NCBI GenBank assembly: GCA_000166095.1
Contig: CP002278.1
Span: 990,001-1,022,000, forward strand
DNA: 32,000 bases
Origin: Methanothermus fervidus DSM 2088
Lineage (GTDB): Archaea > Methanobacteriota > Methanobacteria > DSM-2088 > Methanothermaceae
Reading direction: 5' to 3'
Both the position numbers and the translations under genes were made by a program. The notes under the pieces were generated by a model. It was not told the origin of the DNA and did no database searches. It worked only from the letters and a program-made list of their open reading frames with translations. The stretch's first letter is position 1; the number at the start of each line of letters is the position of its first letter. Below, piece by piece: positions 9,404 to 31,620 of this stretch.

Positions 9404-10615
9404 TTACCAAATATCCACAGTTTTATCCTTATTTGTAAACCTAGTTACATGTTTAAATACAGATTTTGGAGCTATGTATTTACATATTTCCACTATTTGT
9501 GGGTTACAACCTTCAATACAATATTTTAACTGTAACTTAAGAAGTTTGTGATACCTCATAAAATTTGTAAAAATGAGAGTTGTACTTACTGCATATGTAT
9601 TTGGGTATTTACCTAAATTTAATGTTATTTCTTCACCAGGATCCAAAACTAGCGAATATTCTTTGTAAAATACTTTATTTCCTTTAACACTATCAGTGTA
9701 AATACTTACATAATATGAAATCTTTACAAAGCTGTTTCCTAAATTCTTTATTGTTATATTATAGAGATAAGGTGCAAAAAAATCAGGGTCTATCATACTA
9801 TACCTAAATATAGCAAATCCACTGGCACCATTCTCCAATGCAGCCCTGATATCTTGGACTAGTTCACTTGCTGGCAACTTAACAGGATTTTTATCTGATC
9901 TATATGCAAGTATTCCTGTGACAACTGGCTTTAATGAATGCTCAACAACATATCTAGTTACTTTCCCTATCCACTCAGTTGTTTCATTGTAGTTACCTTT
10001 GTAAGCCATTGGAACAATGAAGTCTAGATATCTTGACATATTTGTGTAATCTTGGCCATATATATAGTTAGCCCACATTTCTGGCATAACTGCTGCTGAA
10101 ACTAATGCATTTGGCTTTATCTTCTTCACTGATTCATATACATACTTAACTATATCTGCTATTATATCTGTACCATTCTTTGGTGCATTTCCTGGATATC
10201 TTATGTAATCTAGGTGTATTCCATCAACGTTGTATTCCTTTATATACTTAGTTGCCTTCTGAACTAGCACATCTTTGATTTCAGGGTGCTTAACTGGGTC
10301 TATCCATGTATTGTTTTGCCTTAAGCACATTATCCATGCATGGACTCTTATATTTTCATTCTTGGCCTTGTTTATGAATTCTTTTGTGGAGTTTTGAAGT
10401 GTTGGATCCTCAAAAGCCCTTTGAAATAAAAAAATATTAGTTATATCTCTACTTTTTAAATAACTAAAACTCACATTGTCCATTTCTGTGGACCAAACCC
10501 AAACACCATTTAAAGATGTAGAAGAAATATTTTGAGCATGAACACAATCTAAATTTAAAATTAAAGCTAAGCTAATGCTAATCAATATTAAAGCCATAGG
10601 AATGTGAGAATTCAC
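9404..10615 (-). CDS. Secreted glycoside-hydrolase-like TIM-barrel protein (GHL10/DUF4015-like) with a 119-aa C-terminal domain shared with the large surface protein
   Basis: The N-terminal signal-like segment is MALILISISLALILNLDCVHA. DGIHLDYIRYPGN resembles the D-Y-I-R-[FY]-P motif of the glycosyl-hydrolase-like TIM-barrel families. The C-terminal 119 aa (9404-9763) align gaplessly with the C-terminus of the 26249-29167 product. Confidence 0.55.
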   Translation of the reverse strand: MNSHIPMALILISISLALILNLDCVHAQNISSTSLNGVWVWSTEMDNVSFSYLKSRDITNIFLFQRAFEDPTLQNSTKEFINKAKNENIRVHAWIMCLRQNNTWIDPVKHPEIKDVLVQKATKYIKEYNVDGIHLDYIRYPGNAPKNGTDIIADIVKYVYESVKKIKPNALVSAAVMPEMWANYIYGQDYTNMSRYLDFIVPMAYKGNYNETTEWIGKVTRYVVEHSLKPVVTGILAYRSDKNPVKLPASELVQDIRAALENGASGFAIFRYSMIDPDFFAPYLYNITIKNLGNSFVKISYYVSIYTDSVKGNKVFYKEYSLVLDPGEEITLNLGKYPNTYAVSTTLIFTNFMRYHKLLKLQLKYCIEGCNPQIVEICKYIAPKSVFKHVTRFTNKDKTVDIW

Positions 10616-10646: not shown

Positions 10647-12182
10647 TCAACTTATAAATTTTTCCAATATGTTAGCTATTTTATCTATATATTTAGCTAG
10701 TGGCCCCATTTTCCTTCCGGCTTTTCTTATCAACTTTATGTCTTTTTCTTCAAAACCTTTTAAAACCATGAGGAAAATTGTATAGATTACAGGACTTATG
10801 AATACCATTAATATTAACATAAAGATTGTTTTTGGTAGGAATGACAAAATAATACCCAAAAGCAATGAAGCAATTATTATTTTTGTAAATGCAGAGAAAG
10901 GAGGTTTCACTCCAGTTACTTCAAATGTTTTAAACATTGATATTAGCATTATTATAAATGTTGCAGAACTTGTAGCTGTAGCAGCTCCAACCATTCCATA
11001 AATAGGAATTAAAAACCAGTTAAATATGAAATTCAATATCGTTCCAAAGAACAGAATATACATAGGAAGTGATGGACGTCCTACTCCCTGAATTATACTG
11101 GAAGATACAACAAAGAATGTATAAAATGTCATTCCCATAACCAATATTCTCAATGGTTCGGCTCCAGGAACATATTGGCTTCCAAAAAGCAATGAAATTA
11201 CAGGTGATGCAAATACAGCTATTCCAACACATATAGGCAGCACTGTTAACATCACAATTCTATATGATTGTGTCACATAGTCTTCTAAAAGTTTTTTATT
11301 TTTTAAAGAATAAGCTTCTGAAGCTGCTGGAAGCGCTGCTGTTGCAACTGAAATGGATATTACCAAAGGTAATCTTGCAATAGGATCTGCAGCAGAATAA
11401 TATCCAAGATATATCGTAGGTAAAAAGTGACCAATTAAAAATGTATCAATATCATATATAGCCATTTCAGATAAAGCTGCAAGAATAACAGGTATTGAAA
11501 AATTTAAAAGCATTTTAGCTATTTTAATTTCTTTTTTAAAATCTATTTTTGGATATGTGAAATCATCAGCTAAATATTTTTTAAATACAATTAATGATGC
11601 TATTAAAGACACTAAAAATCCTAAAGCAGTTCCAATTACAGCCCCAACAACATAAAAACCTAAAACGACCAATATTGCTGCAAAAATAATTATACCAACT
11701 TGTTCTACAAATCTTGTTACAACGATATATTCCATTTTATAAATTCCTTGAAATAAGCCTCTAAATACTCCAACAATCACGCTAAAAGGCAATATTAGAG
11801 CTACAGCTTGTAATGGAAGTATAGCGTTTGGTTTGTGAAAAAAGTTACAAGCTATCCATGGAGAAGTAAAAAATATTACTAATGAAAATATGAACGCTAA
11901 AAGTATCATTAGTTTCATTGATACATATAAAACAGCCCTTGCATCTTCTTTTTTATCCAATACCATATATTCGGCAACATATTTAGCAATGGCTGGTGGT
12001 AGCCCCCCAGCAGCCAATATCTGGAATATTCCTTGAAAAGGCATTGTAAGTCCTAGTATACCATAACCTTCTGGCCCAAGCATCCTACTCATTAGGAATC
12101 TATAAATATATCCTCCAATACGAAAAATAAAATTACCAATTATTATTAAAAATGTCCCTTTCACAAGCTTTGAAGTACTCAT
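10647..12182 (-). CDS. MOP-superfamily polysaccharide/oligosaccharide flippase (Wzx/MurJ-like)
   Basis: 511 aa with about 14 predicted hydrophobic helices. The N-terminal NFIFRIGGYIYRFLMSRMLGPEGYGILG is typical of the polysaccharide biosynthesis protein family. Confidence 0.8.
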   Translation of the reverse strand: MSTSKLVKGTFLIIIGNFIFRIGGYIYRFLMSRMLGPEGYGILGLTMPFQGIFQILAAGGLPPAIAKYVAEYMVLDKKEDARAVLYVSMKLMILLAFIFSLVIFFTSPWIACNFFHKPNAILPLQAVALILPFSVIVGVFRGLFQGIYKMEYIVVTRFVEQVGIIIFAAILVVLGFYVVGAVIGTALGFLVSLIASLIVFKKYLADDFTYPKIDFKKEIKIAKMLLNFSIPVILAALSEMAIYDIDTFLIGHFLPTIYLGYYSAADPIARLPLVISISVATAALPAASEAYSLKNKKLLEDYVTQSYRIVMLTVLPICVGIAVFASPVISLLFGSQYVPGAEPLRILVMGMTFYTFFVVSSSIIQGVGRPSLPMYILFFGTILNFIFNWFLIPIYGMVGAATATSSATFIIMLISMFKTFEVTGVKPPFSAFTKIIIASLLLGIILSFLPKTIFMLILMVFISPVIYTIFLMVLKGFEEKDIKLIRKAGRKMGPLAKYIDKIANILEKFIS

Positions 12183-13846: not shown

Positions 13847-14263
13847 ATGTATAGAAAAGGTTATTGTAGAGAATTAGATCTTGTAAATCTTTTTTGGGAT
13901 AAAGGTTTTGCAGCTCTCAGAGTAGCAGGTTCCGGAAGTTCTTCAAAACCATTGCCAGATATTGTAGCAGGGAATGGAAAAAAATATTTAGCAATAGAGG
14001 TAAAGTACACATCAAAAGAAGTTCTATATATTAATTTCAGTAAAATCGAAGAGTTAATTAAATTTTCAAAACGATTTGGAGCTGAAGCATATATAGCAGT
14101 AAAATTTAGCCATAAAGATTGGCTGTTTTTATCACCAAAAGATCTAAAGAAGACTAGAAGTGGTAACTATCGTATTGATATTGATTTAGCAATGCTGAAA
14201 GGTAAGTTATTTGAAGAGATTATTGGGGAAGAAAAACAAATGAAACTTATTGATGATCACTGA
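13847..14263 (+). CDS. hjc: Holliday junction resolvase Hjc
   Basis: KGYCRELDLVNLFWDKGFAALRVAGSGS...PDIVAGNGKKYLAIEVKYTS matches the Hjc catalytic pattern (ERE..., GSG, PD...(E/D)xK). The size of 138 aa is typical. Confidence 0.9.
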   Translation: MYRKGYCRELDLVNLFWDKGFAALRVAGSGSSSKPLPDIVAGNGKKYLAIEVKYTSKEVLYINFSKIEELIKFSKRFGAEAYIAVKFSHKDWLFLSPKDLKKTRSGNYRIDIDLAMLKGKLFEEIIGEEKQMKLIDDH

Positions 14264-15201
14264 GAATTTTTTACCATATGGACAATTCCTACCTCTACAA
14301 TAGGACCTAAAAAATGTATCTCTGCCAGTTTTTTATGACTTTTAACTTTAAAACCTTGGTTTCTTAATTTATCAATTAAAATTTTAGGATTTTCAAAATT
14401 TTCATATCTGTGGTATTCAAATATTATTTCTTTAAACATTGAAAGATCAGAATTTTTTATTATTTCATATTCGCAACCTTCACAATCCATTTTTAATAAA
14501 TATGGCTTCACATTATATTCATCAATTATTTTTTCAATTGTCGTTGATTTAACTCTAATTTTCTTTTCACCATTTGTATATGCTGAAGCACCACCACTCA
14601 TTTCTAAACCATCATATGAAATTTTTATTTCTCCTTCACTACTACTAACAGCTTTATTTATAAATTTTATTCTATCTGCCAAATTTTTATTTAAATTTAT
14701 ATTTTTTAATGCAAGTTTATACACTTCTGGGATAGGTTCAAAAGCATAAACTTTATAGCCTTTTGATGCAAAATATAAAGCTGTATCACCTATGTTACCT
14801 CCAATATCTATCACCGTTTCATCATCTTTCGCTTTTCTAACTCTATATTGTTCTTCAACAAAAGTTTCATAAATTGAATAAACTACAGAATTCAAGAACC
14901 TTATACCATTGATTTCTATAATTTTGTTGTTTCTTTGGTTTAAGAATGCTTTTAAATTATTTATTCCTACTTTGGAAAGTTTTTGAGAGCATGCTAATAT
15001 CAAGTAATCAAAATATTCTCTCTCTATATCATTTTTATCCAATTCGATGTTTCCCAAATATTTAAATGCACATTTACATTTATCTTTCAATCCTAAACGG
15101 AACAACAAAACACTTAAAGCACTTAAAGGATCTTTAGTTGCTTTAAAAATTAATTTTGTCCACAAATATTTTGACTTCAAATTTTTAATCAATCCTTCCA
15201 C
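14257..15201 (-). CDS. FkbM-family SAM-dependent methyltransferase (likely sugar O-methyltransferase)
   Basis: VIDIGGNIGDTALYFASKGYKVYAFEPIPEVY...N and LLKMDCEGCEYEI are the hallmark FkbM (TIGR01444-type) motifs. Confidence 0.8.
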   Translation of the reverse strand: MEGLIKNLKSKYLWTKLIFKATKDPLSALSVLLFRLGLKDKCKCAFKYLGNIELDKNDIEREYFDYLILACSQKLSKVGINNLKAFLNQRNNKIIEINGIRFLNSVVYSIYETFVEEQYRVRKAKDDETVIDIGGNIGDTALYFASKGYKVYAFEPIPEVYKLALKNINLNKNLADRIKFINKAVSSSEGEIKISYDGLEMSGGASAYTNGEKKIRVKSTTIEKIIDEYNVKPYLLKMDCEGCEYEIIKNSDLSMFKEIIFEYHRYENFENPKILIDKLRNQGFKVKSHKKLAEIHFLGPIVEVGIVHMVKNSQ

Positions 15202-15216
15202 CTCTTTTTAAAATTC

Positions 15217-16371
15217 TCAACTCTTAAAAGCCTCAAAATTATTATACCATTCTTTTAATTTATTTTTTAATTTCTTTTTAAATACTTCAAAGTCAAATGG
15301 CTTTGCAAATTCTCTTATTTTTTCATTATCCCATTCTAAGTCATCAAGTATATTTATTGCCTTTGCAATTGAGTTTTCATCCCCTTTAGTCACTATTCCT
15401 CCATTATAAATATTTAAACCATTTTTGTTTTGTAAATAACCAGTTTTTTTTAGTAATATTGGTGGAAAACCAGTTTTATTTACAATGACTGGTTTTCCAG
15501 CTGCAAGAGCTTCGACAGGTACAATTCCAAAATCTTCATTTTTGGGGTTATAAATGACCGCCTTACATCTTGAAAGAAGATCTAATTTTTCTTTGTTATC
15601 AACATAGCCTTTAAACTCAATTAGCTTTCCTTCATAATTTTTAACATATTCATATGTTTTTTTATCATTTCCTTCCTCTCCAATTAAAACTAATTTACTT
15701 CTAGTTTTTTCACAGGCATTTATTACAGGCATTATTTGTTTTGCTTTATCAAATCTGCCTATATGGAGAAAGAAATCTTCATTGTCTTTAAATTTATAAT
15801 TTTTGAGTTTTAAAGGAGGATACAAAATTGTTGAATCTCTTTTTAAATATTTCCATAGCCGATGCTTTATCACTTCAGAATTTACAAAATAATGATCGAC
15901 TCTTGAATCAACAATACTATCAATGTATCTAAAAAAATTCGCAAAAAAGAAAGATAAAATTCCTTGATTATATGATTTCTTCCAATAATAATGCCATAAA
16001 TCATAAAAAAATCTCATTGTTGAGTGACAGTAATTTACATGCATTACATCCTGTGGTGTAATCAAAGCTCTTGGAGGATTTCCAGATGAAATAATAATAT
16101 CAAAATCATCAATTTCACCTATATCTATCATCTCATAATACAAATAAAGGAATGATGCAATTTTTGGTTTGAAAATTCTAGCCCAGCGAGGAATATATTC
16201 AAACAAATTAATTATCTTTATTTTTCTTGCTTCTGGTTCAATTAATTCCTCATTATCTTTAAAAGCAAATGTATATATCTCTTTTTTGTCTAAAGCTTCA
16301 GCTATATCTGCTACTAATTTTTCTCCACCACCTGATATCACAAAGCTTTCATGGAAGATCCCTACTTTCAT
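15217..16371 (-). CDS. Glycosyltransferase, GT4 (GT-B fold, retaining)
   Basis: The C-terminal half carries NPKNEDFGIVPVEALAAGKPVIV (the E-x7-E motif region). Confidence 0.85.
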   Translation of the reverse strand: MKVGIFHESFVISGGGEKLVADIAEALDKKEIYTFAFKDNEELIEPEARKIKIINLFEYIPRWARIFKPKIASFLYLYYEMIDIGEIDDFDIIISSGNPPRALITPQDVMHVNYCHSTMRFFYDLWHYYWKKSYNQGILSFFFANFFRYIDSIVDSRVDHYFVNSEVIKHRLWKYLKRDSTILYPPLKLKNYKFKDNEDFFLHIGRFDKAKQIMPVINACEKTRSKLVLIGEEGNDKKTYEYVKNYEGKLIEFKGYVDNKEKLDLLSRCKAVIYNPKNEDFGIVPVEALAAGKPVIVNKTGFPPILLKKTGYLQNKNGLNIYNGGIVTKGDENSIAKAINILDDLEWDNEKIREFAKPFDFEVFKKKLKNKLKEWYNNFEAFKS

Positions 16372-16454: not shown

Positions 16455-17467
16455 ATGCAATGTTTGTGCTGTTGCAGTTACTCATGGTGATAGATTTAGT
16501 ATTTACGTAAGTGTATTAGTGCGGCATTTAATGAAGGTGTTAATAAGGCTATAATTGTTGACAATAATTCAGATCCTAGAAGTAGAGAAAAATTACGTAA
16601 ATATGAAGAAAATAATGATAAAATAAAAGTTATTTATTTAAATGAAAATCATGGTACTGCTGGTTTTAAGACGGGAATGATGGAAGCATACAAAGATAAA
16701 GATTGTGAATTTATATGGTTACTAGATAGTGATAGTTTACCTTGTCCTGGATCCTTGGAAGCATTGAAAAAAACTTGGAAAAAGTATAACTGTAAAAATA
16801 AAGAAAAAAATTTAGTTTTATGTTCTCGAAGACCAAAACATGAACATATATATATACAAGAATTATTTGGAAGAATATCAAAAAAATGCCTTTTGTGGAT
16901 TTTCGGTGAGCAATATTTTAAAAAGTTACTTAAAGAAATTAAATATTAAAAATTCCAAGCCTAAACGTTTTGATTTTATTGAAGTTCCTGCAACTGGATT
17001 TGGTGGCATGTTTTTTCATAAAAAGCTGTTAGATGTTGTAGGATACCCAAAAGAAGAATTTTATCTTTATTTTGATGACACTGAATGGTCCTACAGAATT
17101 ACAAAAAATGGTGGCAAAATAATAATTGTTTGGGATAGTGTTGTAGAAGATTCATTAGAACCTGGTACTGAAAATGAAGATAAGAAAGAATTTTTATCTT
17201 TATATAAGCCATCTAACTTATATAGGGTTTATTATTTTGCTAGAAATGGAGAATACTTTTTTTAGGAAAATATATCCAGCAAAACGAAATAAATTACTGT
17301 ATTATATTAACATGTTTACATTTCTTTTTATTGTCTTGCTCCACGATATATTTATTAACCATTCTTTAATAGCCTTAAAAACTATTTTAAAAGCAAAAAA
17401 GGATGGGAAAAAAGGTAATTTAGGTAAAAATCCAAATTTTGAATACCAATCCACAAAAGTAAATTAA
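16455..17467 (+). pseudogene. Decayed GT2 glycosyltransferase (rhamnosyltransferase-like) broken by at least four frameshifts
   Basis: The SD GAGGTG (16441-16446) is followed by the ATG at 16455. Homologous protein segments lie in different frames in this order: NVCAVAVTHGDRF... ; AAFNEGVNKAIIVDNNSDPRS...GTAGFKTGMMEAYKDKDCEFIWLLDSD ; NAFCGFSV...GFGGMFFHKKLLDVVGYPKEEFYLYFDDTEWSYRI...YYFARNGEYFF ; RKIYPAKRNKLLYYINMF...KDGKKGNLGK. Confidence 0.75.
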
Positions 17468-20060: not shown

Positions 20061-20786
20061 TTAGCTCCAAGAAAGTAATTTATCTGAAATAAATTCTGGA
20101 GGTACTGGATTTATATAAGCAAAAATTAAAATTAAAGTTAAAGAAAGGAATACAACCAATAAAATAAGTTTGTCCTCTCTATATGGGTATATTTTATAAA
20201 TCAGCATGCAAAATAGGAAAAACAAAACAATTATGGCTAAAGAATAATTTTTATTTGGATTTTCCACTTTTATTTTTTCTAAAGGTAATATCTTAACAAT
20301 CTTACATTCAACTATTAACCTTTTACTTGTTGAACCAAAAGGATAGCAAGTAACAAGTAACAATTTATTGCCTTGACGCAAAGGTATTTCATAGTCTGCA
20401 GGAACTACAAATGATTTATCAACTTTATATTCAATTTTTCCAACTTTTGGCCAATTAACATATACTACATCGCCTTTTTTCAATTTATCTAAATTCATAA
20501 ATGGAGATCCATAAAGCGTTCTATGTCCAAAGAGGACTGTAGTTCCAGACCCAGGAATGGACGATCTAGGATCATAGTATACACCATAAGATAGTGATTT
20601 GTTGTTAATTTCTTCTTTTAAGTTTATTGCAGGTATCTCTAAGGTGGCTGTGTATTTATTCTCTATAGTTATCTTTGAGGCATAATAACTTACCTCAATA
20701 AGTGCATAAAGAAAAATTATAAAAACTCCAACAATGATCATAACTGTAGATAATTTTACTTTCACATTTCCGCCCCCAGTACACAT
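20061..20786 (-). CDS. Sortase-family transpeptidase-like membrane protein
   Basis: TVLFGHRTLYGSPFMNLDKLKKGDVVYV is the sortase His motif with the downstream L..L..GD. LLLVTCYPFGS is the TLxTC-like catalytic Cys motif. SKRLIVECK supplies the conserved Arg. There is one N-terminal and two C-terminal hydrophobic helices. The longest ORF starts at a TTG (20864), but the ATG at 20786 is favoured. Confidence 0.7.
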   Translation of the reverse strand: MCTGGGNVKVKLSTVMIIVGVFIIFLYALIEVSYYASKITIENKYTATLEIPAINLKEEINNKSLSYGVYYDPRSSIPGSGTTVLFGHRTLYGSPFMNLDKLKKGDVVYVNWPKVGKIEYKVDKSFVVPADYEIPLRQGNKLLLVTCYPFGSTSKRLIVECKIVKILPLEKIKVENPNKNYSLAIIVLFFLFCMLIYKIYPYREDKLILLVVFLSLTLILIFAYINPVPPEFISDKLLSWS

Positions 20787-20817
20787 TGATATCTCTCTAC
20801 TATCTAAAAAAATTAAC

Positions 20818-20822
20818 GAGGT
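20818..20822 (+). promoter_or_regulatory. Shine-Dalgarno site (GAGGT) for the GT2 gene starting at the GTG at 20830
   Basis: GAGGT lies 7 nt upstream of the in-frame GTG. That GTG precedes KKNIIIIPAYNEE, the usual N-terminus of GT2 enzymes. Confidence 0.6.
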
Positions 20823-20829
20823 AAAAAAC

Positions 20830-21485
<656 letters not shown>

Positions 21486-21507
<22 letters not shown>

Positions 21508-22484
21508 TTTTTTCAATAAGTTTTTTATTAATATTATCGCTGATCTTGTGGATCGGACCATATAAACTTTATAAAACAGTGATTAAGGCAAATTGGAATT
21601 TATTAGTATTAGCAATGTTTACACACATCTTTGCAATTATCATTAGGTCTGTGAGATGGGGAATATTAACACAAAAAAATGATCTGAAAAAAAATTTTAT
21701 TGTGAAAACTATAGGTTTATTTGCAGGTAATATAACACCTTCAAGGGCTGGCGGTGAACCAATAACAGCCCTGGCAGGCAAAAGAATCAATAAAATATCT
21801 TTTTCATTAGGAATGTCCGCAGGATTAGTTGAAAGATTTTTTGATCTTGGTGTAGTTGGTATTATTTTGATTATAGTTGGGTTTTCAATGCCTAAACTAC
21901 GATTTATAGCTATTATTGGTGGTTTATTATCAATTTTAATCACTGCCCTCATCTATGTCTTTGCTTGGAATGCAAAAATAGGAACAATGTTGTATGTTAA
22001 ATTCCACAATATTTTAAAATTTTTACCATTAGATGAAGAAATATTGGATAATCTATATGTTAAAGCTATAAATACAATTGAAAAAATAGTTACAGAAACA
22101 AGAAAAATTTCTGTTTTTAGATTATTTTTAGTTTCATTGTTATCAATTTTGTCCTGGCTAACAGAATGTTTTAGATTGTATCTAGTGATACTTGCATTCA
22201 ACAAGTATATTGCCTTCCCACTTGTTGTCGTATTATTTTTAATTGTAAATGTAGTTGGCATTGTTTCTGCATTACCTGGCGGTATGGGCTCTATCGAAGT
22301 CTCATCTACAGGTTTATTGGTTTTATTTAAAATTCCAAGTTCTATAGCAGGTAGTATTGCATTTATGGACAGAGTTGTATCATTTTGGTTAGTAACAATA
22401 CTTGGATTGGCATTTTCAATATATTATGCACCAGATATACTAGATGAAACTAAGAAATATATTGAAACATTGAAAACTGAGTGA
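21486..22484 (+). CDS. Flippase-like integral membrane protein (LPG-synthase-TM / TIGR00374 family)
   Basis: About 8 hydrophobic helices. RSVRWGIL and PSRAGGEP motifs are typical of this family, which is commonly paired with polyprenyl-phosphate GT2 enzymes. The GTG start at 21486 is preceded by the SD AGGTGGA (21474-21480). Confidence 0.7.
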
Positions 22485-23368
22485 TTTTCATGGATGATGT
22501 GGCAATAATAATTCTGAATTGGAATGGATGGAAGGATACAATTGAATGTTTAAAATCTCTTAACAATTTAAATTATAAAAATTATGAAGTTATAGTGGTT
22601 GATAATGGATCCACAGACAATTCTGTTGAAAAAATCAAGGAATACATAGAAAATAAACCTAAATTTAAGTTAATAGCAAATGAAAAAAATCTTGGTTTTG
22701 CTGGTGGAAACAACATAGGAATTAGATATGCACTAAATAATGAATTTGAATATATTTTGCTTCTTAACAATGATACTGTAGTTGATGAAAATTTCTTAAA
22801 GCCTATGGTAGAATTATTGGAATCAAGTGATGATATAGGATTTGTTGGACCAAAAACTTATTTTTATGATAAAAAAAATGTAATTCAGGTTGCTGGCGGT
22901 GGATATGTAGATTTAACAACTGCCAGAGCTTATCTGTTAGGTTATATGGAAAATGATTCTAGTAAATACAATGAAGTAATTGAATTAGATTATGTAAGTG
23001 GTTCATGTATTTTAACTAAAAGGGATGTAATTGAGGAAATAGGATTGTTAGATGAAAGGTTTTTTATGTATTATGAAGATGTTGAATGGTGTTACAGAGG
23101 AAAAAAACATGGTTATAAGTCATTTTATCAGCCAGAGGCTGTGATATGGCATAAACATGGTGCATCCACAAATAAATGTTTTGAGTTGTATCATTTAAAC
23201 AAAAGTAGAATTTTGTTTATTAAAAAAACTGGAATGAAAAACTTCATTAAATTTGTTTTTAAATTTTTTTCAAATGTTTTTTGGCTGGAAAGTTACTATT
23301 ATATAAGAAAATATCCTCAAGCATATAAATGTTATTTAAAGGGATTGTTGGAGGGTTTTAAAGGATGA
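22481..23368 (+). CDS. GT2 glycosyltransferase
   Basis: AIIILNWNGWKDTIECLKSL...VIVVDNGSTDNS...NLGFAGGNNIG...LLLNNDT...EDVEWCYR. It has 4-nt overlaps with both neighbours. Confidence 0.85.
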   Translation: MIFMDDVAIIILNWNGWKDTIECLKSLNNLNYKNYEVIVVDNGSTDNSVEKIKEYIENKPKFKLIANEKNLGFAGGNNIGIRYALNNEFEYILLLNNDTVVDENFLKPMVELLESSDDIGFVGPKTYFYDKKNVIQVAGGGYVDLTTARAYLLGYMENDSSKYNEVIELDYVSGSCILTKRDVIEEIGLLDERFFMYYEDVEWCYRGKKHGYKSFYQPEAVIWHKHGASTNKCFELYHLNKSRILFIKKTGMKNFIKFVFKFFSNVFWLESYYYIRKYPQAYKCYLKGLLEGFKG

Positions 23369-24438
23369 AAATAAATTTTACAGTGAAATTAACAGCGATG
23401 ACAGGGGGTATAAGATTTGTATTTGAAATTGCAAATAGATTGGTCGAGAAGGGACACGATGTAACCATAACAGCATTAGGAGGAGATCACAGATGGTTTC
23501 CATTGAAAGCAGAAGTAAATTATGTATCTTTACCAAAATTCTTTAAATTTTTTGATTATGTGAAAAGACTTATTTTTAGAAGAAAGCTGTATTATTATGA
23601 ATTAAATACTCTCGCTAGAAAAATAGGTCTTAACATTGATATGATTAAAGTTTTGGCAAAATATACACCTGATTGTGATGTTAACATTGCAACAAGATTT
23701 TTAACAGCGTTTGCTGTATATAGAAGCAACAAAGGGATTCCTGTTTATCTCTGCCAAGATTTTGAGGAATCTGTTGCTGAAAAAGGCGACTACTACCTTA
23801 AAATGTTTTATGAATCTTTGAATCTTCCTATGCATTTTATAACCATATCTGAATGGATGAAAGAATGGTTGAGTGAGTATTCAAACAATGTTTTTTTAGT
23901 TAGGAATGGAATAAATCATGACATTTTTTATCCAAGAAATGTTGAAAAAGATGGAAAATATGTGATGGGTATATATAGGGATTTAGAATATAAAGGTGGA
24001 AAAGAACTTATAGAAGCATTGAAGATAATTAAAAGAAATAAAAATGATGTTAAAACAATAGTTTTAGGTAAAGACTTTGGAGATATTAGTTATAATAGAG
24101 TTAGTGATAAGAAATTATCAGAATTATATAATTTAGCTGATGTATTTATCTATACCTCAAAAGTAGAAGGTTTTGGATTACCTCCATTAGAAGCCATGGC
24201 TTGTGGAACAGCTGTTGTAACAACAGATTGTAAAGGTGTTAGAGAATATATAGAAGATGGAAAAAATGGATTCATAGTTCCAAGAAATCCTAAAAAAATT
24301 GCGGAAAAAAGCATTGAATTATTAGAGGATGAAAAGTTAAGAAGAAAAATTGCAAGAATGGGAATTAAAACAGCAAAAAAATATAATTGGGATAGAAGTG
24401 CTGATGAATTTGAAAAAATATTATACAAGATAGTATGA
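23365..24438 (+). CDS. GT4 glycosyltransferase
   Basis: SKVEGFGLPPLEAMACGTAVVTTD...GKNGFIV is the GT4 E-x7-E region. Confidence 0.85.
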   Translation: MKINFTVKLTAMTGGIRFVFEIANRLVEKGHDVTITALGGDHRWFPLKAEVNYVSLPKFFKFFDYVKRLIFRRKLYYYELNTLARKIGLNIDMIKVLAKYTPDCDVNIATRFLTAFAVYRSNKGIPVYLCQDFEESVAEKGDYYLKMFYESLNLPMHFITISEWMKEWLSEYSNNVFLVRNGINHDIFYPRNVEKDGKYVMGIYRDLEYKGGKELIEALKIIKRNKNDVKTIVLGKDFGDISYNRVSDKKLSELYNLADVFIYTSKVEGFGLPPLEAMACGTAVVTTDCKGVREYIEDGKNGFIVPRNPKKIAEKSIELLEDEKLRRKIARMGIKTAKKYNWDRSADEFEKILYKIV

Positions 24439-25196
24439 TATCGGTGATATGCGTATACAACAATGAAAAAATTTTAAATGATTATTTGTTAAGGTCCTTA
24501 GAAAAACAAGTTGACCATGAAAGAATACTAGTGGATAATAGATTCAATAAATTTAAATCTGCTGCTGAAGCCTTGAATTATGCTGGAAAGAAAGCAAAAG
24601 GAGATTATTTATTATTTTGTCATCAAGATGTTGAACTTCTAACAAAAGATTGGCTTAAAAAGGCTGAAGAAATTCTTGAGGATCTTGATAATTTAGGTGT
24701 TGCTGGAGTTGCTGGTGTAACTAAAGAAGGTGTAAAGAAAAATGTTATAATTCATGAATTTCCACCAAAAAGGTGGGGTACTCCAATAAATAAACCTGTT
24801 GAAGTAGAAACTGTTGATGAATGTTTATTTATAGTTCCAAGAGAAGTTTTTAAAAAATATAAATTTGATGAAAAAACTTGTCAAGGATGGCATCTTTATT
24901 GTGTTGATTATTGTTTAGATTTAAAAAAGAGAGGATTTAAAATATATACTCTTCCATTGAAAATATATCATCTCTCTAAACATTCTGAAGAAATGAATGC
25001 ATTGAAAACCATTTTAAATCTCGGATATCATCCTAGTGATTATTATGAAGAACTTAAGAAAATTTTAGAGAAACATAAAGATCTCAAGGAGATACATACT
25101 ACATGCGGTACCTGGAGAACAGATGAACCATTGCTATTACAAAGATTAAAACTTCTATTTTCATTGGCATTAAGAAAAATTCAAGGAAAATCATAA
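24435..25196 (+). CDS. Glycosyltransferase-like family protein (GT2-like, Glyco_tranf_2_5 type)
   Basis: ISVICVYNNEKILNDYLLRSL...SAAEALNYAGKKAKGDYLLFCHQDVELL resembles the 'glycosyltransferase like family' pattern (ICVNNE...GYN.G...A.G.Y..F.HQDV). Confidence 0.6.
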   Translation: MISVICVYNNEKILNDYLLRSLEKQVDHERILVDNRFNKFKSAAEALNYAGKKAKGDYLLFCHQDVELLTKDWLKKAEEILEDLDNLGVAGVAGVTKEGVKKNVIIHEFPPKRWGTPINKPVEVETVDECLFIVPREVFKKYKFDEKTCQGWHLYCVDYCLDLKKRGFKIYTLPLKIYHLSKHSEEMNALKTILNLGYHPSDYYEELKKILEKHKDLKEIHTTCGTWRTDEPLLLQRLKLLFSLALRKIQGKS

Positions 25197-25210
25197 GGGA
25201 AGTTGTTTAC

Positions 25211-26239
25211 ATGAAAGTATGTTATTTTGGTTCATATCCAGAATATTATCCAAGGCATAGAATTATAAAGAAAGGATTGGAAAAACATGGAGTTGAAGTT
25301 TGTGAAGTTGTTGATAGATCACATATATTGTTAAGGTATCCAAAACTTGCATTAAAATATTTTAAGGAGAAAAATTTTGATGTTATTCTTGTTGGTGAGG
25401 CAAGTAATTTTGTTCAGCCATTGGCATTACTTTTAAAAAAAATAACAAATAAGCCATTGATATTTGATACATATGTTTCTGTATATGATACAAATAAAGA
25501 TAGAGGTATTTACAAGAACATCAACAAAATATTCTATTTTTTAGATAAAATAAATTGCCAATTCTCAGACATTGTTTTACAAGATACAAAACAAAATTTA
25601 CAATATTTTCATGAAACATTTTCTATTCCAAAGGAAAAATTTAGGGTTGTATATATTGGTGCTGAGGAAGATGTTTTCTATCCAAGAGATTGTTGTGAAG
25701 ATAGATTTAATGTTTTATTTTATGGAACTTATATACCACTTCATGGTGTTGAATATATTGTTAAAGCAGCTAAATTACTTCCAAATGTTAAATTTACACT
25801 TATTGGAAGAGGTCAGACATATCCAAAGGTTAGAAGATTAAGTAAAAATTTAAATAATGTAATATTTAAAGATAAGGTTCCCTATTTTCAACTTCCTAAA
25901 TATATTGAGAGGGCTAGTGTTTGTTTAGGTATATTTGGAGGAACTGACAAGGCCATGCGGGTTATACCAACTAAAATTTACCAGTCAATAGCAATGAGAA
26001 AACCTGTTATAACTGGTGACTCACCAGCTATTAAAGAACTTTTTGAGGATAAAAAGAATATTTTATTGTGTAAAATGGCTGATGAAAATAGTTTGGCAGA
26101 AGCAATTGAATTACTTAAAGAGGATGAAAAATTACGTAATAAACTTTCAAAAAATTCATACAAATTATTTAAAAAGAATTTAACTTCTTACCATATTGGT
26201 AAAAAAATAAAAAAAATAATAAAGGAAGTAAGGTTTTAA
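25211..26239 (+). CDS. GT-B fold glycosyltransferase (GT1/GT4-like)
   Basis: KVCYFGSYPEYYPRHRIIKKGLEKHGVEV is the N-terminal pattern. The C-terminal segment is VIPTKIYQSIAMRKPVITGDSPAIKELF...NILLC. Confidence 0.7.
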   Translation: MKVCYFGSYPEYYPRHRIIKKGLEKHGVEVCEVVDRSHILLRYPKLALKYFKEKNFDVILVGEASNFVQPLALLLKKITNKPLIFDTYVSVYDTNKDRGIYKNINKIFYFLDKINCQFSDIVLQDTKQNLQYFHETFSIPKEKFRVVYIGAEEDVFYPRDCCEDRFNVLFYGTYIPLHGVEYIVKAAKLLPNVKFTLIGRGQTYPKVRRLSKNLNNVIFKDKVPYFQLPKYIERASVCLGIFGGTDKAMRVIPTKIYQSIAMRKPVITGDSPAIKELFEDKKNILLCKMADENSLAEAIELLKEDEKLRNKLSKNSYKLFKKNLTSYHIGKKIKKIIKEVRF

Positions 26240-26248: not shown

Positions 26249-29167
26249 TTACCAGATGTCTACTGTACCATTCTTGTTTGTGAATCTTGTTGTGTCTTTA
26301 ATTGTTGTTCTTGGTGGTATGTCTTTGGATATTATTTTGACTTGTGATGCACAACCTTCAATGTTGTATTTTGCATATAAATCAACTGACATGTAGTTTC
26401 TTCCTGTGTTTGTGAATACTGCTGTTGTTGATACTGCGTAGGTGTCTGGATATTTACCTAGATCTATTGTTGTTTCTTGTCCAGCATTCAATGTTATTGT
26501 TAATTCCTTGTAGTATACTTTAGTTCCATTAACTGGATTTGTGTAAACTGATATGTAGTATTTGAATGTTATTGTTGATGTTCCTGTATTTCTTAATATT
26601 ATTGAGAATGTCTTATTCTGGACTACAGGAGTTGGCGTTGGTACAACTGGTGTTGTTACATTCACTGTAACTGGTGTTAAGTTTCCTATTGTAACGTTGT
26701 AGGTTCCAGCTTGTGTTAAGGTGTAAGATAGGCTTACAGTTGTTGAGTTTCCTGGACCTACTGTTACTGTTGTTTGATTTACAGCATTGTTATTCACATA
26801 TAATGTTGCTGTGTAGTTTCCAGCTGTTCCTCCAGTGTTTGTAACTTTTGCTGTTGCAGTTATTGTTAGTGGTGCAACTCCAGATGTTGGAGTGACTGTT
26901 AAGTTGCTTAGTGTGAAGTTTGCTGGTGTTGTTACAGTTACTGTAACTGGTGGTAAGACATCTGTTACATTTGTTCCTATTGTAACGTTGTAGGTTCCTG
27001 CTTGTGTTAAGGTGTAAGTGAATGTTATTGGAACTGTTGTATTATTTCCAACTGTTAATGCCCGGCTTGCAACTGCAGCACCATTCACATATAATGTTGC
27101 TGTCACATTAACAGGTGTTGAGTATTTGTTTGTGAAGTTTGCTGTTGCTGTAATGTTTAATGGTGCAACTCCAGATGTTGGTGTAACTACTAAGTTGCTT
27201 AGGACATAGTTTGGATCGTAGACTTTAACTGTTACATTTGATGTTGGTAATATTGTTGTAACATTTGTACCCATCATTATTGTATGAGTTCCTACACCTA
27301 AGTTTGGATAGTTGAATGTTATTGGAAGTGTTGAATTTGCAGGAACTGTAATTGTTTGATTTGCAACTGCTGAACCATCAATGTAGAGTATAGCTGTCAC
27401 ATTAACAGGTGTTGAGTATTTGTTTGTGAAGTTTGCTGTTGCTGTAATGTTTAATGGTGCAACTCCAGATGTTGGTGTAACTACTAAGTTGCTTAGGACA
27501 TAGTTTGGATCGTAGACTGTTATATTCATTGTTTTATTCTGTATCATGTTTAGATTGTTATCTAACAATGTAACATTTAATGTGTAAGTACCTGGTGATT
27601 GTATGTATGGGTAGAAGTAATATGTAATTGTTTGTGGTGTTGGTGCATTTATATTCACTGTTGTATTTGCATTATATACTACATTAGTTGCATTAATAGT
27701 AACATTTAGATATCCTGTGAAGTTAGCACTTGTCACAGGAACTGCCACTGTAATTTGTCCAGGATATATTGTTGTTGGTGATACAGTGATGTCACCAAGT
27801 GCAACCATACCTACAGTTACTGGTACAATATTAGTTGTGCAGTTCCAAGGTTGACCAGCTATTGTTGCATTAACATATACATATATGTTGTAAGTTCCTG
27901 TTTGGTTTAATGTGTAAGTGAATGTTATTGGAAGTGTTGAATTTGCAGGAACTGTAATTGTTTGATTTGCAACAGGAGTACCGTTTACATTTAAGAATGC
28001 TGTGTAATTCCAGGCTAGACCACCAGTGTTTGTGATGTTACATGTTGCAGTTATTGTTAGTGGTGCAATTCCAGATGTTGGAGTGACTGTTAAGTTGCTT
28101 AAGGTAGCATATGGTGGATTTAAAACTGTGACTGTAACGGTGTTACCCTTCACAACTGTTGTACCATTTGTTGCCCAGACACTTACTGTATGATTACCTA
28201 CTTCTGAGAATTGATATGTTTGATTGTATGTCCATATTACTCCAGCAGTACTACAACCTTGTTGGAAAGCAGTTCCCCATAATGCATTACCGTCATACAC
28301 TAAAGTAGCATTTTTAGTGTCAGTTAGATCATTTGTTATAGTTGCACTGATGGTACATGTTGTATTCTTAAATACTGTAATAGTTGTGTTTGAACTTGTT
28401 GGCTGTCCTGTTTGAAGATTTGGAGCGGTAACTGTTACATTATAAACTTTTGTAGGTGGTGCACTTACAGTTACTGTCACATTATTGGTTGTGTAGGTGT
28501 AAGTTATACCAACTATTGTTGTAGTGACAGTTATATTTATGTTGTTAGTTCCTATTTGGCTTAATTGGTTTAATGTGTAAGTGAATGTTATTGGAAGTGT
28601 TGAATTTGCAGGAACTGTAATTGTTTGATTTGCAACAGGAGTACCGTTTACATTTAAGAATGCTGTGTAATTCCAGGCTAGACCACCAGTGTTTGTGATG
28701 TTACATGTTGCAGTTATTGTTAGTGGTGCAATTCCAGATGTTGGAGTGACTGTTAAGTTGCTTAAGGTAGCATATGGTGGATCTACAACTGTAACATTAA
28801 CGATGTTACCATATACGGTGTTTGTACTATTTGTTGCCATCACAGTTACTGTATGATTACCTGTTTGTGTGAATGTATAGTTATTGTATGTGTATGTGTA
28901 TGGGTATGTAGTAATGTTAGTTACAGTAGTAGTATTAACTGGACTATTATCCACTACTAAAGTAGCATTTGATACTTCATTTACTGTAGTATTTGTTATA
29001 GTTGCACTAATATTACATGGTGTATTCTTAAATACTGTAATACTTGTGTTTGAACTTGTTGGCTGTCCTGTTTGAAGATTTGGAGCGGCAACTGTTACAT
29101 TACTAACATTTACAGCAGAAGCTACGCCTGCTAGCGCAAATACTGCCAGCACCATTGCCAGCAGCAT
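26249..29167 (-). CDS. Large secreted surface (S-layer/adhesin-like) glycoprotein with repeated CARDB-like beta-sandwich domains, a Pro/Thr linker and a conserved C-terminal domain
   Basis: The signal peptide is MLLAMVLAVFALAGVASA. There are at least 5 copies of LSNL[TV]VTPTSG[IV]APL.ITAT...TN...Y.A.L.VNG..VANQTITVPANSTLPITF (CARDB-like). The linker is TTPVVPTPTPVV. I counted about 68 N-x-S/T sequons by hand. There is no C-terminal TM, LPXTG or PGF-CTERM. Confidence 0.8.
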   Translation of the reverse strand: MLLAMVLAVFALAGVASAVNVSNVTVAAPNLQTGQPTSSNTSITVFKNTPCNISATITNTTVNEVSNATLVVDNSPVNTTTVTNITTYPYTYTYNNYTFTQTGNHTVTVMATNSTNTVYGNIVNVTVVDPPYATLSNLTVTPTSGIAPLTITATCNITNTGGLAWNYTAFLNVNGTPVANQTITVPANSTLPITFTYTLNQLSQIGTNNINITVTTTIVGITYTYTTNNVTVTVSAPPTKVYNVTVTAPNLQTGQPTSSNTTITVFKNTTCTISATITNDLTDTKNATLVYDGNALWGTAFQQGCSTAGVIWTYNQTYQFSEVGNHTVSVWATNGTTVVKGNTVTVTVLNPPYATLSNLTVTPTSGIAPLTITATCNITNTGGLAWNYTAFLNVNGTPVANQTITVPANSTLPITFTYTLNQTGTYNIYVYVNATIAGQPWNCTTNIVPVTVGMVALGDITVSPTTIYPGQITVAVPVTSANFTGYLNVTINATNVVYNANTTVNINAPTPQTITYYFYPYIQSPGTYTLNVTLLDNNLNMIQNKTMNITVYDPNYVLSNLVVTPTSGVAPLNITATANFTNKYSTPVNVTAILYIDGSAVANQTITVPANSTLPITFNYPNLGVGTHTIMMGTNVTTILPTSNVTVKVYDPNYVLSNLVVTPTSGVAPLNITATANFTNKYSTPVNVTATLYVNGAAVASRALTVGNNTTVPITFTYTLTQAGTYNVTIGTNVTDVLPPVTVTVTTPANFTLSNLTVTPTSGVAPLTITATAKVTNTGGTAGNYTATLYVNNNAVNQTTVTVGPGNSTTVSLSYTLTQAGTYNVTIGNLTPVTVNVTTPVVPTPTPVVQNKTFSIILRNTGTSTITFKYYISVYTNPVNGTKVYYKELTITLNAGQETTIDLGKYPDTYAVSTTAVFTNTGRNYMSVDLYAKYNIEGCASQVKIISKDIPPRTTIKDTTRFTNKNGTVDIW
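27099..27224. repeat. 126-bp perfect intragenic direct repeat, copy A (partner 27393-27518)
   Basis: Compared base by base: gctgtcacattaacagg...ggatcgtagact is identical in both copies, at an offset of 294 bp (98 codons, one domain). Confidence 0.95.
27393..27518. repeat. 126-bp perfect intragenic direct repeat, copy B (partner 27099-27224)
   Basis: See copy A. Both encode VYDPNYVLSNLVVTPTSGVAPLNITATANFTNKYSTPVNVTA. Confidence 0.95.
27902..28119. repeat. 218-bp perfect intragenic direct repeat, copy A (partner 28565-28782)
   Basis: Compared base by base: ttggtttaatgtgtaagtgaatg...catatggtggat is identical, at an offset of 663 bp (221 codons, a two-domain unit). Confidence 0.95.
28565..28782. 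repeat. 218-bp perfect intragenic direct repeat, copy B (partner 27902-28119)
   Basis: See copy A. Both encode PPYATLSNLTVTPTSGIAPLTITATCNITNTGGLAWNYTAFLNVNGTPVANQTITVPANSTLPITFTYTLNQ. Confidence 0.95.
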
Positions 29168-29327: not shown

Positions 29328-30458
29328 CTAAATACATTGTTCATACACTTTCATAGTTTCCTTAACAACATTATCCCATGTAAATTTTGATAAAGCAAAT
29401 TTACGAACTTTAGATCTTGAATTATAACTAAGCAATTCTTTTAATGCCTTAACCAATTCATTGACATCATAATTAATTATCCTACCAACTTCATCATTTA
29501 TCCATTCTGAAATTCCACAATATTTTGTAACAATAACTGGAGTTCCGCATACCATAGCCTCAAGTACAACATTCCCAAAAGATTCATAATAATCCTTTGA
29601 TGGTAAAACAAAAACGTCCGCATCAGTATAAGCCTCAATTTTTTCCTTTCCATAAATAGGACCTGTTAAAACAACCTTCTTATCTATTTTTTTAATTAAT
29701 TTTTTTAGTTTTCCAAGATAATGATCATCAGGGCCTGCAATAACTAATGTTACATCTTCATTGTTAAGCTTGGAATAAGCCTTAATAAGTAAATCCAACC
29801 CTTTTCTTTCATGAATTCTTCCTAAATACAAAATCATTTTGCCTTCAATACCAAATTTTTTCTTAAATCTACCTTTTTTAGGTAATTCCCATGGATTAAT
29901 ACCATTAGGAATATGAACTACACGACTCATATTTACTTTTGGAAATACTTTCTTATATTGCCTAGATTCAATTTTAGATGATGCAATAATCCTACAAGCA
30001 TTATAGAATATCTTTGATCCAATAAAATCAAATATCTTTTTCCTAATTGTTTTTGAGAATCTTGGTGCTGAACCTCTTGGCTGCAATACATAAGGAACAT
30101 TATATTTTCTTGCATAATAATAAGCAACTAAAGCTAAGAAATTACGGAACTCATGTATATGAACAATATCATAATCCTTAATCTCTTTTCTAGCAACTAT
30201 TGGCATATAATAAGGTAGCGGGATGTTATGTGAAGATAAGAACATAGACAAATTTCTAAAATAATAAACATTGATGCCATCAACATTGATAGCTCTATTC
30301 TTAACAACATTAATTCTCCTCTTAAATCCGTCTGTTGTATAAACAGTTACATCATGACCTAATTTAGCTTGCCTATAACTTATTTCATATACAGATCTTG
30401 GAGGTCCTCCAGCTTCCCAAGATGGTTTAAAATATGGAACAACGTGAAGAATCTTCAT
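29328..30458 (-). CDS. GT4 glycosyltransferase
   Basis: MKILHVVPYFKPSWEAGGPP is the typical GT4 N-terminus, and ESFGNVVLEAMVCGTPVIVT is the E-x7-E region. The start was set at the ATG at 30458, which removes a 35-nt overlap with the upstream gene (track start 30494). Confidence 0.85.
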   Translation of the reverse strand: MKILHVVPYFKPSWEAGGPPRSVYEISYRQAKLGHDVTVYTTDGFKRRINVVKNRAINVDGINVYYFRNLSMFLSSHNIPLPYYMPIVARKEIKDYDIVHIHEFRNFLALVAYYYARKYNVPYVLQPRGSAPRFSKTIRKKIFDFIGSKIFYNACRIIASSKIESRQYKKVFPKVNMSRVVHIPNGINPWELPKKGRFKKKFGIEGKMILYLGRIHERKGLDLLIKAYSKLNNEDVTLVIAGPDDHYLGKLKKLIKKIDKKVVLTGPIYGKEKIEAYTDADVFVLPSKDYYESFGNVVLEAMVCGTPVIVTKYCGISEWINDEVGRIINYDVNELVKALKELLSYNSRSKVRKFALSKFTWDNVVKETMKVYEQCI

Positions 30459-30459
30459 T

Positions 30460-31620
30460 TTATCTTTCCAATAAATTTTTAAGTATTTTTTCAAATTTGT
30501 CAGTTATTTTTTCCCAATCTCTTTTCTCTACATACCTTCTAGCCTTAATTCCTTCTTTCTCAATATCTATCTTCCTTGCCAAATCAATTGTCTCCTCAGG
30601 TTTATCCACATAAAATACGCCATTCCCTTTGTTAAATTCCATGACTATTCCAGGTAACCTGGTTGCTATCACAGGCTTTGCCATTGCCATATATTCATAT
30701 ATTTTTATTGGGACTATATCTTGCATTATTTTATGTTTATGAGCTGGTAAAACACAAATATCAGCAGCAGCTAAAAATTTTGGTATCTCATCATATTTTT
30801 TCCTACCAGTGAGAATAATTTTGTTGCATTTATTAGCTATTTTCAAAAGATCATCATAGATATCTCCATCACCAACAATCATTAACTTCATATTTACATC
30901 TTTTTTACACAATTCTTCGGCTAACTCTTTTAAACCAGAAAATTCATAAAGATATCCCATAAAAAATAAAAGTAATTCATTATCTTTAATTCCATATTTC
31001 TTTCTTATCTCTCTACCATCTAAACTTAAATCAAATTTACTTAAGTCTATTCCTGCCCCCAATACTTTAGTTTTTTTAGGATTAGACCCTAAATCAATAG
31101 CAAATTGGGCTAAACGCTTGTTTATTGCTAAAACCAAATCTGACTCCTTAATAATTTTTTTCATCAATATTTTTCCAAAAAATTGTAAATAATTTTCAGG
31201 AATAAGCCTATATAAAACATCTATTAAGTAATAAACAAAAGGTATGTCATGTTTTTTAGCTTCATGAACTCCTAAAAAAGAATTTAAAATTCCAAAACCC
31301 AATATAACATCAGGATCAAATTCTTTAATTTGCCTTTTTATTTCCTTTTTGTGGAAATAAAGGATAGATATATAATCAAGAATTGGAATCTTTACAATGC
31401 TTGGCCTAATCACTGTAACATTAGCCTCAGGAATTACTTTATGTACATTCCTAAATATTTTCCTTTTTTCAAAAATTTTATATCCTTTCTTTCTATAATC
31501 TATTTCGTAATCAATTACTCTTATCTCATGACCTCTCACTGACAACCTATCAATTAGATGATGCTGTTGATGTGGGTTCCTAGTTATCCAATCTGACTCC
31601 TGTAATAGAAGTATTCTCAT
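30460..31620 (-). CDS. GT4-like glycosyltransferase
   Basis: MRILLLQESDWITRNPHQQHHL is the N-terminus. The C-terminal IVPIKIYEYMAMAKPVIATRLPG is a GT-B nucleotide-sugar binding region. Confidence 0.8.
   Translation of the reverse strand: MRILLLQESDWITRNPHQQHHLIDRLSVRGHEIRVIDYEIDYRKKGYKIFEKRKIFRNVHKVIPEANVTVIRPSIVKIPILDYISILYFHKKEIKRQIKEFDPDVILGFGILNSFLGVHEAKKHDIPFVYYLIDVLYRLIPENYLQFFGKILMKKIIKESDLVLAINKRLAQFAIDLGSNPKKTKVLGAGIDLSKFDLSLDGREIRKKYGIKDNELLLFFMGYLYEFSGLKELAEELCKKDVNMKLMIVGDGDIYDDLLKIANKCNKIILTGRKKYDEIPKFLAAADICVLPAHKHKIMQDIVPIKIYEYMAMAKPVIATRLPGIVMEFNKGNGVFYVDKPEETIDLARKIDIEKEGIKARRYVEKRDWEKITDKFEKILKNLLER

Follow-up and report, generated by a model that had tools for sequence, protein, structure and literature searches.

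The genome of Methanothermus fervidus DSM 2088 encodes two otherwise unrelated exoproteins of 403 and 972 amino acids (aa) that end in the same 119-residue C-terminal domain (CTD). Both genes lie on the minus strand (whole open reading frames, 9404-10615 and 26249-29167) of one stretch of 32,000 nucleotides, which we refer to as the window (GenBank assembly GCA_000166095.1, contig CP002278.1, positions 990,001 to 1,022,000; G+C content 30.6%). We were able to show that the CTD is a real, non-chance, modular domain that represents an uncurated and lineage-restricted family. With a probability of about 0.5 we infer that it serves as a non-covalent envelope anchor, the likeliest ligand being pseudomurein or a polymer bound to pseudomurein. 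M. fervidus is a hyperthermophilic member of the Methanobacteriales and its envelope consists of a pseudomurein sacculus under an S-layer; how proteins, the S-layer included, are retained on pseudomurein walls is to our knowledge largely unexplained.

A sequence-only reading of the window, made by a model, had proposed that the two proteins share their last 119 residues without gaps and with about 60 identities, that both stop after TVDIW and that they have nothing else in common. Its coordinates were right, and BLASTP of the two full proteins aligned residues 285-403 of the smaller (9407-9763, minus strand) with residues 854-972 of the larger (26252-26608, minus strand) without a gap, with 60 of 119 residues identical and 83 of 119 positive (E=1e-36). 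The CTD is the sole significant segment between them and, since the next-best one has an E-value of 3.9 (E>=3.9 for all remaining segments), the proteins are unrelated outside of it. In both translations TVDIW is followed directly by the stop codon (9404-9406 and 26249-26251, minus strand). The domain of the 403-aa protein, whose GTG-start form is the recorded one, was also found by hmmsearch with the family profile at E=1.5e-52, every profile position being covered, and that of the 972-aa protein is delimited by BLASTP, family-profile hmmsearch and an AlphaFold2 model.

No third copy was detected in the window by tblastn with the domain. The DNA encoding the two copies is 61% identical in codon register, and conserved sites are most frequent at the second codon position (87/120) and least frequent at the third (64/120). 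Nucleotide similarity ends at the domain borders, the flanks of the two copies being unrelated. This ending at the borders, together with the codon-position pattern, fits an old duplication that was maintained by selection acting on the protein, as judged from these two sequences. A recently copied cassette is ruled out by the 61% nucleotide identity and by the flanks without similarity.

The domain is not confined to these two tails. A profile built from them was searched against 1.84 billion (1.84e9) representative proteins and matched ten proteins at E<=1e-3, only four of which reached E<=1e-10. All four strong matches come from M. fervidus DSM 2088 (the 972-aa protein, Mfer_0615, ADP77947.1 and WP_052293464.1), so that its 1,243,342-bp genome encodes five paralogues when the 403-aa protein is counted. 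Mfer_0615 (503 aa; locus L006, 10001-11512) consists of PMBR, a BPL_N/GATase1-like domain and the CTD, and in this way combines two putative wall-binding modules in one protein. ADP77947.1 (P0003, 444 aa) joins a Chlam_PMP beta-helix to the CTD, and WP_052293464.1 (P0004, 216 aa) a beta-helix fragment.

More distant relatives (P0007, P0008 and P0010) matched profile positions 1 to about 100 with library-wide E-values of 8e-5 to 8e-4, and the match corresponds in each case to the terminal ~128 residues of a large adhesin-like protein; DUF11, SBBP, PMP, beta-helix and Big_1 domains occur in these proteins. Comparison of the M. fervidus subfamily with this adhesin-type subfamily by hhalign gave a probability of 97.9% (E=3.9e-13, 98 columns), and on this profile comparison the two are very probably homologous. 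A metagenome scan yielded two additional members (L001 and L002), which are DUF11-repeat proteins of 1,532 and 1,543 aa with a terminal CTD. Proteins encoded next to L001 share 90% identity or more with proteins of Methanobacterium movens and M. alkalithermotolerans, and a neighbouring gene of P0008 matches metagenome-assembled genomes of Methanobacteriaceae/Methanobacteriales, so that two loci with a diverged CTD at the end of a large adhesin-like protein are attributable to Methanobacterium/Methanobacteriaceae. All members with an identifiable source belong to the pseudomurein-walled order; P0007 and P0010 were not traced to a source. Beta-helix proteins encoded next to P0010 were considered as additional members and rejected, as the family-profile hmmsearch did not find the domain in them.

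The breadth of the family is a lower bound, since the exhaustive search rested on a two-sequence profile run for one round. Word-indexed protein searches with the two-sequence, eight-sequence and adhesin-type profiles returned P0004 at most and missed members of their own queries, and they are uninformative on distribution. No relative was seen in two genome-contig scans and the first metagenome-contig scan, where M. fervidus itself is seemingly absent or masked.

In all ten members the domain reaches the end of the protein; as the sequence-only reading had suspected of a modular and always terminal element, 10/10 readable members stop no more than about 11 residues from the last profile position. 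The passengers are mutually unrelated according to Pfam and comprise a GH18/DUF4015 TIM-barrel enzyme of glycoside hydrolase (GH)-like type, Ig-like (immunoglobulin-like) repeats, PMBR with BPL_N (GATase1-like), Chlam_PMP beta-helices, DUF11/SBBP repeats and Big_1. Signal-like N-termini were recognized by reading the sequences in 8 of the 10. Residues N7, G9, Y17, Y18, Y22, L40, G51, S60, N67 and P99 are invariant across the members. The extreme C-terminus reads [VI]DIW in four of the five M. fervidus copies, with WP_052293464.1 ending in GSIEVS, and DIW is not conserved in the adhesin-type subfamily, the proteins of which end in PALL, PRIK or PKLM.

Neither Pfam nor NCBIfam gave a match above threshold on the two window CTDs or on any of eight family members, and below threshold Pfam offered generic Ig-like families only (Cep192_D4, HYDIN/VesB Ig and Transglut_C). 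A sequence-profile search of the PDB with the CTD returned only RhoGDI (E~0.8). Two independent AlphaFold2 models, one of the M. fervidus CTD from the 972-aa protein (3-sequence alignment; mean predicted local distance difference test, pLDDT, 88.5; predicted TM-score, pTM, 0.80) and one of the adhesin-type CTD of P0010 (8-sequence alignment; pLDDT 90.3; pTM 0.82), are all-beta and show nine strands in identical order. The chain ends as a strand of the sheet in the models, if with low confidence for M. fervidus (mean pLDDT of 54 over the last 9 residues). Foldseek found no match at E<=1e-3, either for both models against the PDB or for the M. fervidus model against BFVD; the best PDB matches were transglutaminase C-terminal barrels, FnIII/Ig domains, PLAT and DUF4425 (E>=5e-3, TM-score at most 0.44). 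By these models the CTD has an Ig-like beta-sandwich fold to which no solved structure is closely related.

A shared protein end might also be a signal and not a binding module. The CTD could be a C-terminal sorting or processing signal that is recognized through DIW and cleaved, the passenger being attached covalently, and an archaeal sortase-family gene (20061-20864, minus strand; PF04203 E=2.8e-20) does lie between the two CTD genes. The preserved V/I-D-I-W end of four M. fervidus copies points the same way, as does the fact that the CTDs of the type IX secretion system (T9SS) are likewise terminal Ig-like sandwiches. We nevertheless consider this explanation highly unlikely, even with the sortase encoded at 20061-20864 as the possible catalyst. 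In the models the protein end forms the final strand of the sandwich, if at low confidence for M. fervidus, DIW is not conserved in the sister subfamily and one M. fervidus copy ends in IEVS. Moreover, an LPXTG-like motif, a hydrophobic tail and a PGF motif are all missing from the carriers. As the sequence-only reading had stated, neither protein contains [LI]PxT[GAS], a PGF string or a C-terminal hydrophobic helix, the top 19-residue Kyte-Doolittle mean in the last 130 aa being 0.64 and 0.50 in the two proteins, and NCBIfam gave no PGF-CTERM/archaeosortase match. NCBIfam should include a T9SS sorting-domain model, and with NCBIfam and Pfam no T9SS sorting-domain match appeared in any of the 8 members at E<=10. 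With SLH domains, T9SS CTDs and LPXTG signals the CTD has in common that one terminal module serves enzymes as well as adhesins; it differs in lacking sequence or Foldseek similarity and the motif, and in belonging to another envelope chemistry. The idea of a secretion-sorting signal, which the sequence-only reading had offered next to envelope attachment, is thus unsupported for a folded nine-strand beta-sandwich with a DIW end that the sister subfamily does not keep. Very improbable, too, is the more far-reaching proposal that the CTD acts as the recognition element in a hitherto undescribed archaeal pathway devoted to surface display, by which proteins ending in the folded domain with its DIW would be recognized and processed and then joined covalently to pseudomurein, the same sortase being the possible enzyme; if true, it would be the archaeal analogue of sorting by T9SS CTDs or sortases, with a whole domain in place of the short motif.

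The sortase itself contains LLLVTCYP, which resembles a TLxTC motif, and has hydrophobic segments at its N- and C-terminus. No sortase-type (LPXTG-like) signal was found in any open reading frame of the window.

The composition of the CTD contrasts with that of its passengers. Its isoelectric point (pI) is 9.2-10.1 in the seven members for which it was computed, compared with 6.2 and 7.2 for the passengers in the window, and it is rich in Tyr. In the 972-aa protein the density of N-x-S/T sequons is 1.7 per 100 aa in the CTD and 7.7 in the ectodomain (66 sequons in 853 residues; pI 6.2), and a Pro/Thr-rich linker (TTPVVPTPTPVVQNKT; 26609-26656, minus strand, from the translation) stands between the two, as the sequence-only reading had noticed.

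These contrasts also bear on the view that the CTD is a generic Ig-like end-cap or spacer and that any retention is brought about by other means, for instance by an N-terminal signal anchor that stays uncleaved. Such a role would agree with the sub-threshold likeness to generic Ig-like Pfam families alone and with the weak match of the first profile half to DUF7507/DUF11-type repeats (P0005), and N-terminal helices have indeed been regarded as the membrane anchors of adhesin-like proteins (Gupta and Seedorf, 2024). For a spacer, however, one would expect neither a strictly terminal position in 10/10 proteins, nor conservation across families while the passengers swap, nor separation from the passenger by a linker and by a sharp difference in charge and sequons. 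The CTD is also no copy of the repeats of the 972-aa protein (hhalign 0.4%). On balance we regard the end-cap as unlikely. To repeats of CARDB, DUF11 and DUF7507 type the CTD is related in appearance by its first ~55 residues with the pattern x-I-x-N-x-G ... L-x-P-G-E and by the weak profile contact just mentioned, but it is never repeated, is always terminal and has two extra C-terminal strands, and no CARDB or DUF11 match above the Pfam threshold was obtained on it.

What we favour is the non-covalent anchor. The 119 residues would fold independently into a basic, Tyr-rich, Ig-like sandwich of nine strands, which forms the C-terminal end of at least five M. fervidus proteins that we take to be exported by Sec. 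After export the CTD would hold its carriers non-covalently on the envelope by binding either the pseudomurein sacculus itself or a polymer linked to the sacculus. The passenger, whether an enzyme, a beta-helix or a region of glycosylated Ig-like repeats, would then point away from the cell, connected via the Pro/Thr linker in the case of the 972-aa protein. According to hydropathy the sole signal-like hydrophobic segment of each window carrier is N-terminal and, because the carriers contain no transmembrane helix, PGF or LPXTG, they have no other retention device. It is the terminal position, the variety of passengers, the export signals without anchors, the contrast in charge and sequons, the restriction to the pseudomurein order, the PMBR carried by one member and a proposal from the literature (Johnston et al., 2024) that together favour this explanation. 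Envelope attachment, as already suggested in the sequence-only reading, agrees with the basic pI, the low sequon density, the range of the family and this independent proposal, whereas the binding and its ligand are something we infer.

The proposal concerns the S-layer protein SlgA of M. fervidus, the C-terminal Ig-like domain of which has been suggested, on the basis of structure prediction, to bind pseudomurein (Johnston et al., 2024, bioRxiv 10.1101/2024.05.28.596244; PMC12175726). According to that work, a domain of the SlgA type is "found in many" of the non-S-layer surface proteins in the genus and is best conserved at the extreme C-terminus. The CTD is probably the same module as the C-terminal domain of SlgA (P27373/P27374, 593 aa), the two having been compared by description only. 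The organism is the same and three of the four descriptive features are found in the CTD. The profile match reaches the stop codon in 5/5 M. fervidus members, and the predicted fold is an Ig-like beta-sandwich (nine strands, pLDDT 88.5 and 90.3) with weak Ig-type Foldseek neighbours. Several surface proteins other than the S-layer protein carry the CTD with a conserved C-terminus (five paralogues, four of them ending in [VI]DIW), and ADP77947.1 and WP_052293464.1 show the layout of beta-helix plus CTD that was described for SlgA. The remark in the sequence-only reading that the tail was not recognized as a named family is fair, no curated family having matched it, but Johnston et al. (2024) very probably already noted the module in their supplement.

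A second parallel is M1-C, the conserved C-terminal ~200 aa of 44 adhesin-like proteins of Methanobrevibacter ruminantium M1, which has a Big_1-like part and was proposed to attach to pseudomurein or to wall glycopolymers (Leahy et al., 2010; PMC2812497). By description both are C-terminal modules of adhesin-like proteins of the Methanobacteriales, and P0008 has a Big_1-like stretch directly before its CTD; however, no identified CTD member comes from Methanobrevibacter. The word-indexed searches with the eight-sequence and adhesin-type profiles, which could have reached M. ruminantium, brought up none of its proteins, but they are uninformative on distribution, as stated above.

The only curated pseudomurein-binding module we know of is PMBR (PF09373). 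PMBR and the CTD are present in the same order and, in Mfer_0615, in one and the same protein, and the same role is proposed for both, but PMBR is a short repeat of ~33 residues that is not restricted to the C-terminus, in contrast to a beta-sandwich of 119 residues. PF09373 did not match any of 8 CTD sequences even at E<=10, and the model does match the N-terminal part of Mfer_0615.

The ligand might alternatively be a protein. The CTD may dimerize or dock on the SlgA lattice and thereby integrate accessory proteins into or under the S-layer. The tentative lattice model of Johnston et al. (2024) points in this direction. Ig-like sandwiches often mediate protein-protein contacts, the Foldseek neighbours are only of Ig/FnIII type and wall binding by Mfer_0615 is already served by PMBR. 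The lattice model is, however, called tentative by its authors. Moreover, members of the sister subfamily are present in Methanobacterium and Methanobacteriaceae, which usually have pseudomurein without an S-layer, and an ancestral role specific to the S-layer is thus unlikely; the ligand shared by the two subfamilies would rather be the wall. We therefore judge a protein-protein module to be a rather improbable account of the CTD.

Several observations speak against a wall anchor. The two-sequence, uniterated profile search makes the family appear rare outside M. fervidus, which is odd for a general pseudomurein binder, and Foldseek revealed no similarity to known wall-binding or carbohydrate-binding modules. 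A basic pI is common in the AT-rich hyperthermophile M. fervidus, and the PMBR of Mfer_0615 would make a second pseudomurein binder redundant in that protein. ADP77947.1 and WP_052293464.1 as annotated have no signal peptide; these may be truncated gene calls or pseudogenes. Finally, a 593-aa protein, the length of SlgA, is not among the ten matches of the two-tail profile at E<=1e-3, and the link to the SlgA domain rests on descriptions.

If confirmed as an anchor, the CTD would provide a surface-display tag for Methanobacteriales. Much of the secretome that is visible in a 1.24-Mb genome carries it, and it connects the surface proteins of Methanothermus with the adhesin-like proteins of the Methanobacteriaceae. 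As a compact domain of 119 residues it has clear boundaries, a confidently predicted fold and ten natural fusion partners, and these properties make the question of anchoring directly testable. Its significance is limited by the narrowness of the family, by the putative nature of its function and by the idea having probably been raised already for SlgA in a preprint supplement.

With respect to the carriers, the 403-aa protein begins with a signal-like hydrophobic segment of ~28 residues (10532-10615, minus strand; top hydropathy window starting at residue 7), the putative cleavage site of which is LDCVHA/Q. Its passenger (9764-10531, minus strand) is a GH-like TIM barrel of GH18/DUF4015/GHL10 type, as Pfam matched PF00704 (E=2.8e-11), PF13200 (E=2.9e-9) and PF02638 (E=1.3e-7), all above the gathering score. 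At the place of the GH18 catalytic motif, which we take to be DxxDxDxE, it reads DGIHLDYIRYP and the glutamate appears to be missing, as judged by eye and unaligned. Going by this sequence, the protein may work as an enzyme of DUF4015/GHL type whose catalytic residues are arranged differently, or it may have no catalytic activity.

The 972-aa protein starts with the signal-like segment MLLAMVLAVFALAGVASA (29114-29167, minus strand; top hydropathy window at residue 1), its end being a predicted cleavage site. The Ig-like repeat ectodomain that follows (26657-29113, minus strand) was delimited by repeat analysis and by Pfam, which gave weak Ig-like matches only. It contains five copies of a ~206-nt repeat and two blocks that are spaced 663 nt apart and 93% identical at the nucleotide level, and is the product of recent internal duplications. 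The DNA repeats stop upstream of the CTD, and the CTD as one more copy of these repeats was rejected on this ground and on the hhalign result given above.

Regarding the gene neighbourhood, a Wzx/MurJ-type flippase gene lies directly upstream of the gene for the GH-like protein, and the gene for the 972-aa protein is surrounded by genes for glycosyltransferases of the families GT2 and GT4. A large glycosylation island extends around both CTD genes (10647-12182, 14257-16371 and 29328-31620 on the minus strand, 20734-26239 on the plus strand) and comprises the Wzx/MurJ-like flippase, an FkbM methyltransferase, seven GT2/GT4 glycosyltransferases and an LPG_synthase_TM protein. Three short overlapping reading frames at 16677-17467 (plus strand) have no Pfam match; one of them, of 141 aa, resembles the C-terminal half of the GT2 glycosyltransferase encoded at 22481-23368 (BLASTP E=1e-7), and the three are probably, by this resemblance, the remnant of a disrupted glycosyltransferase gene.

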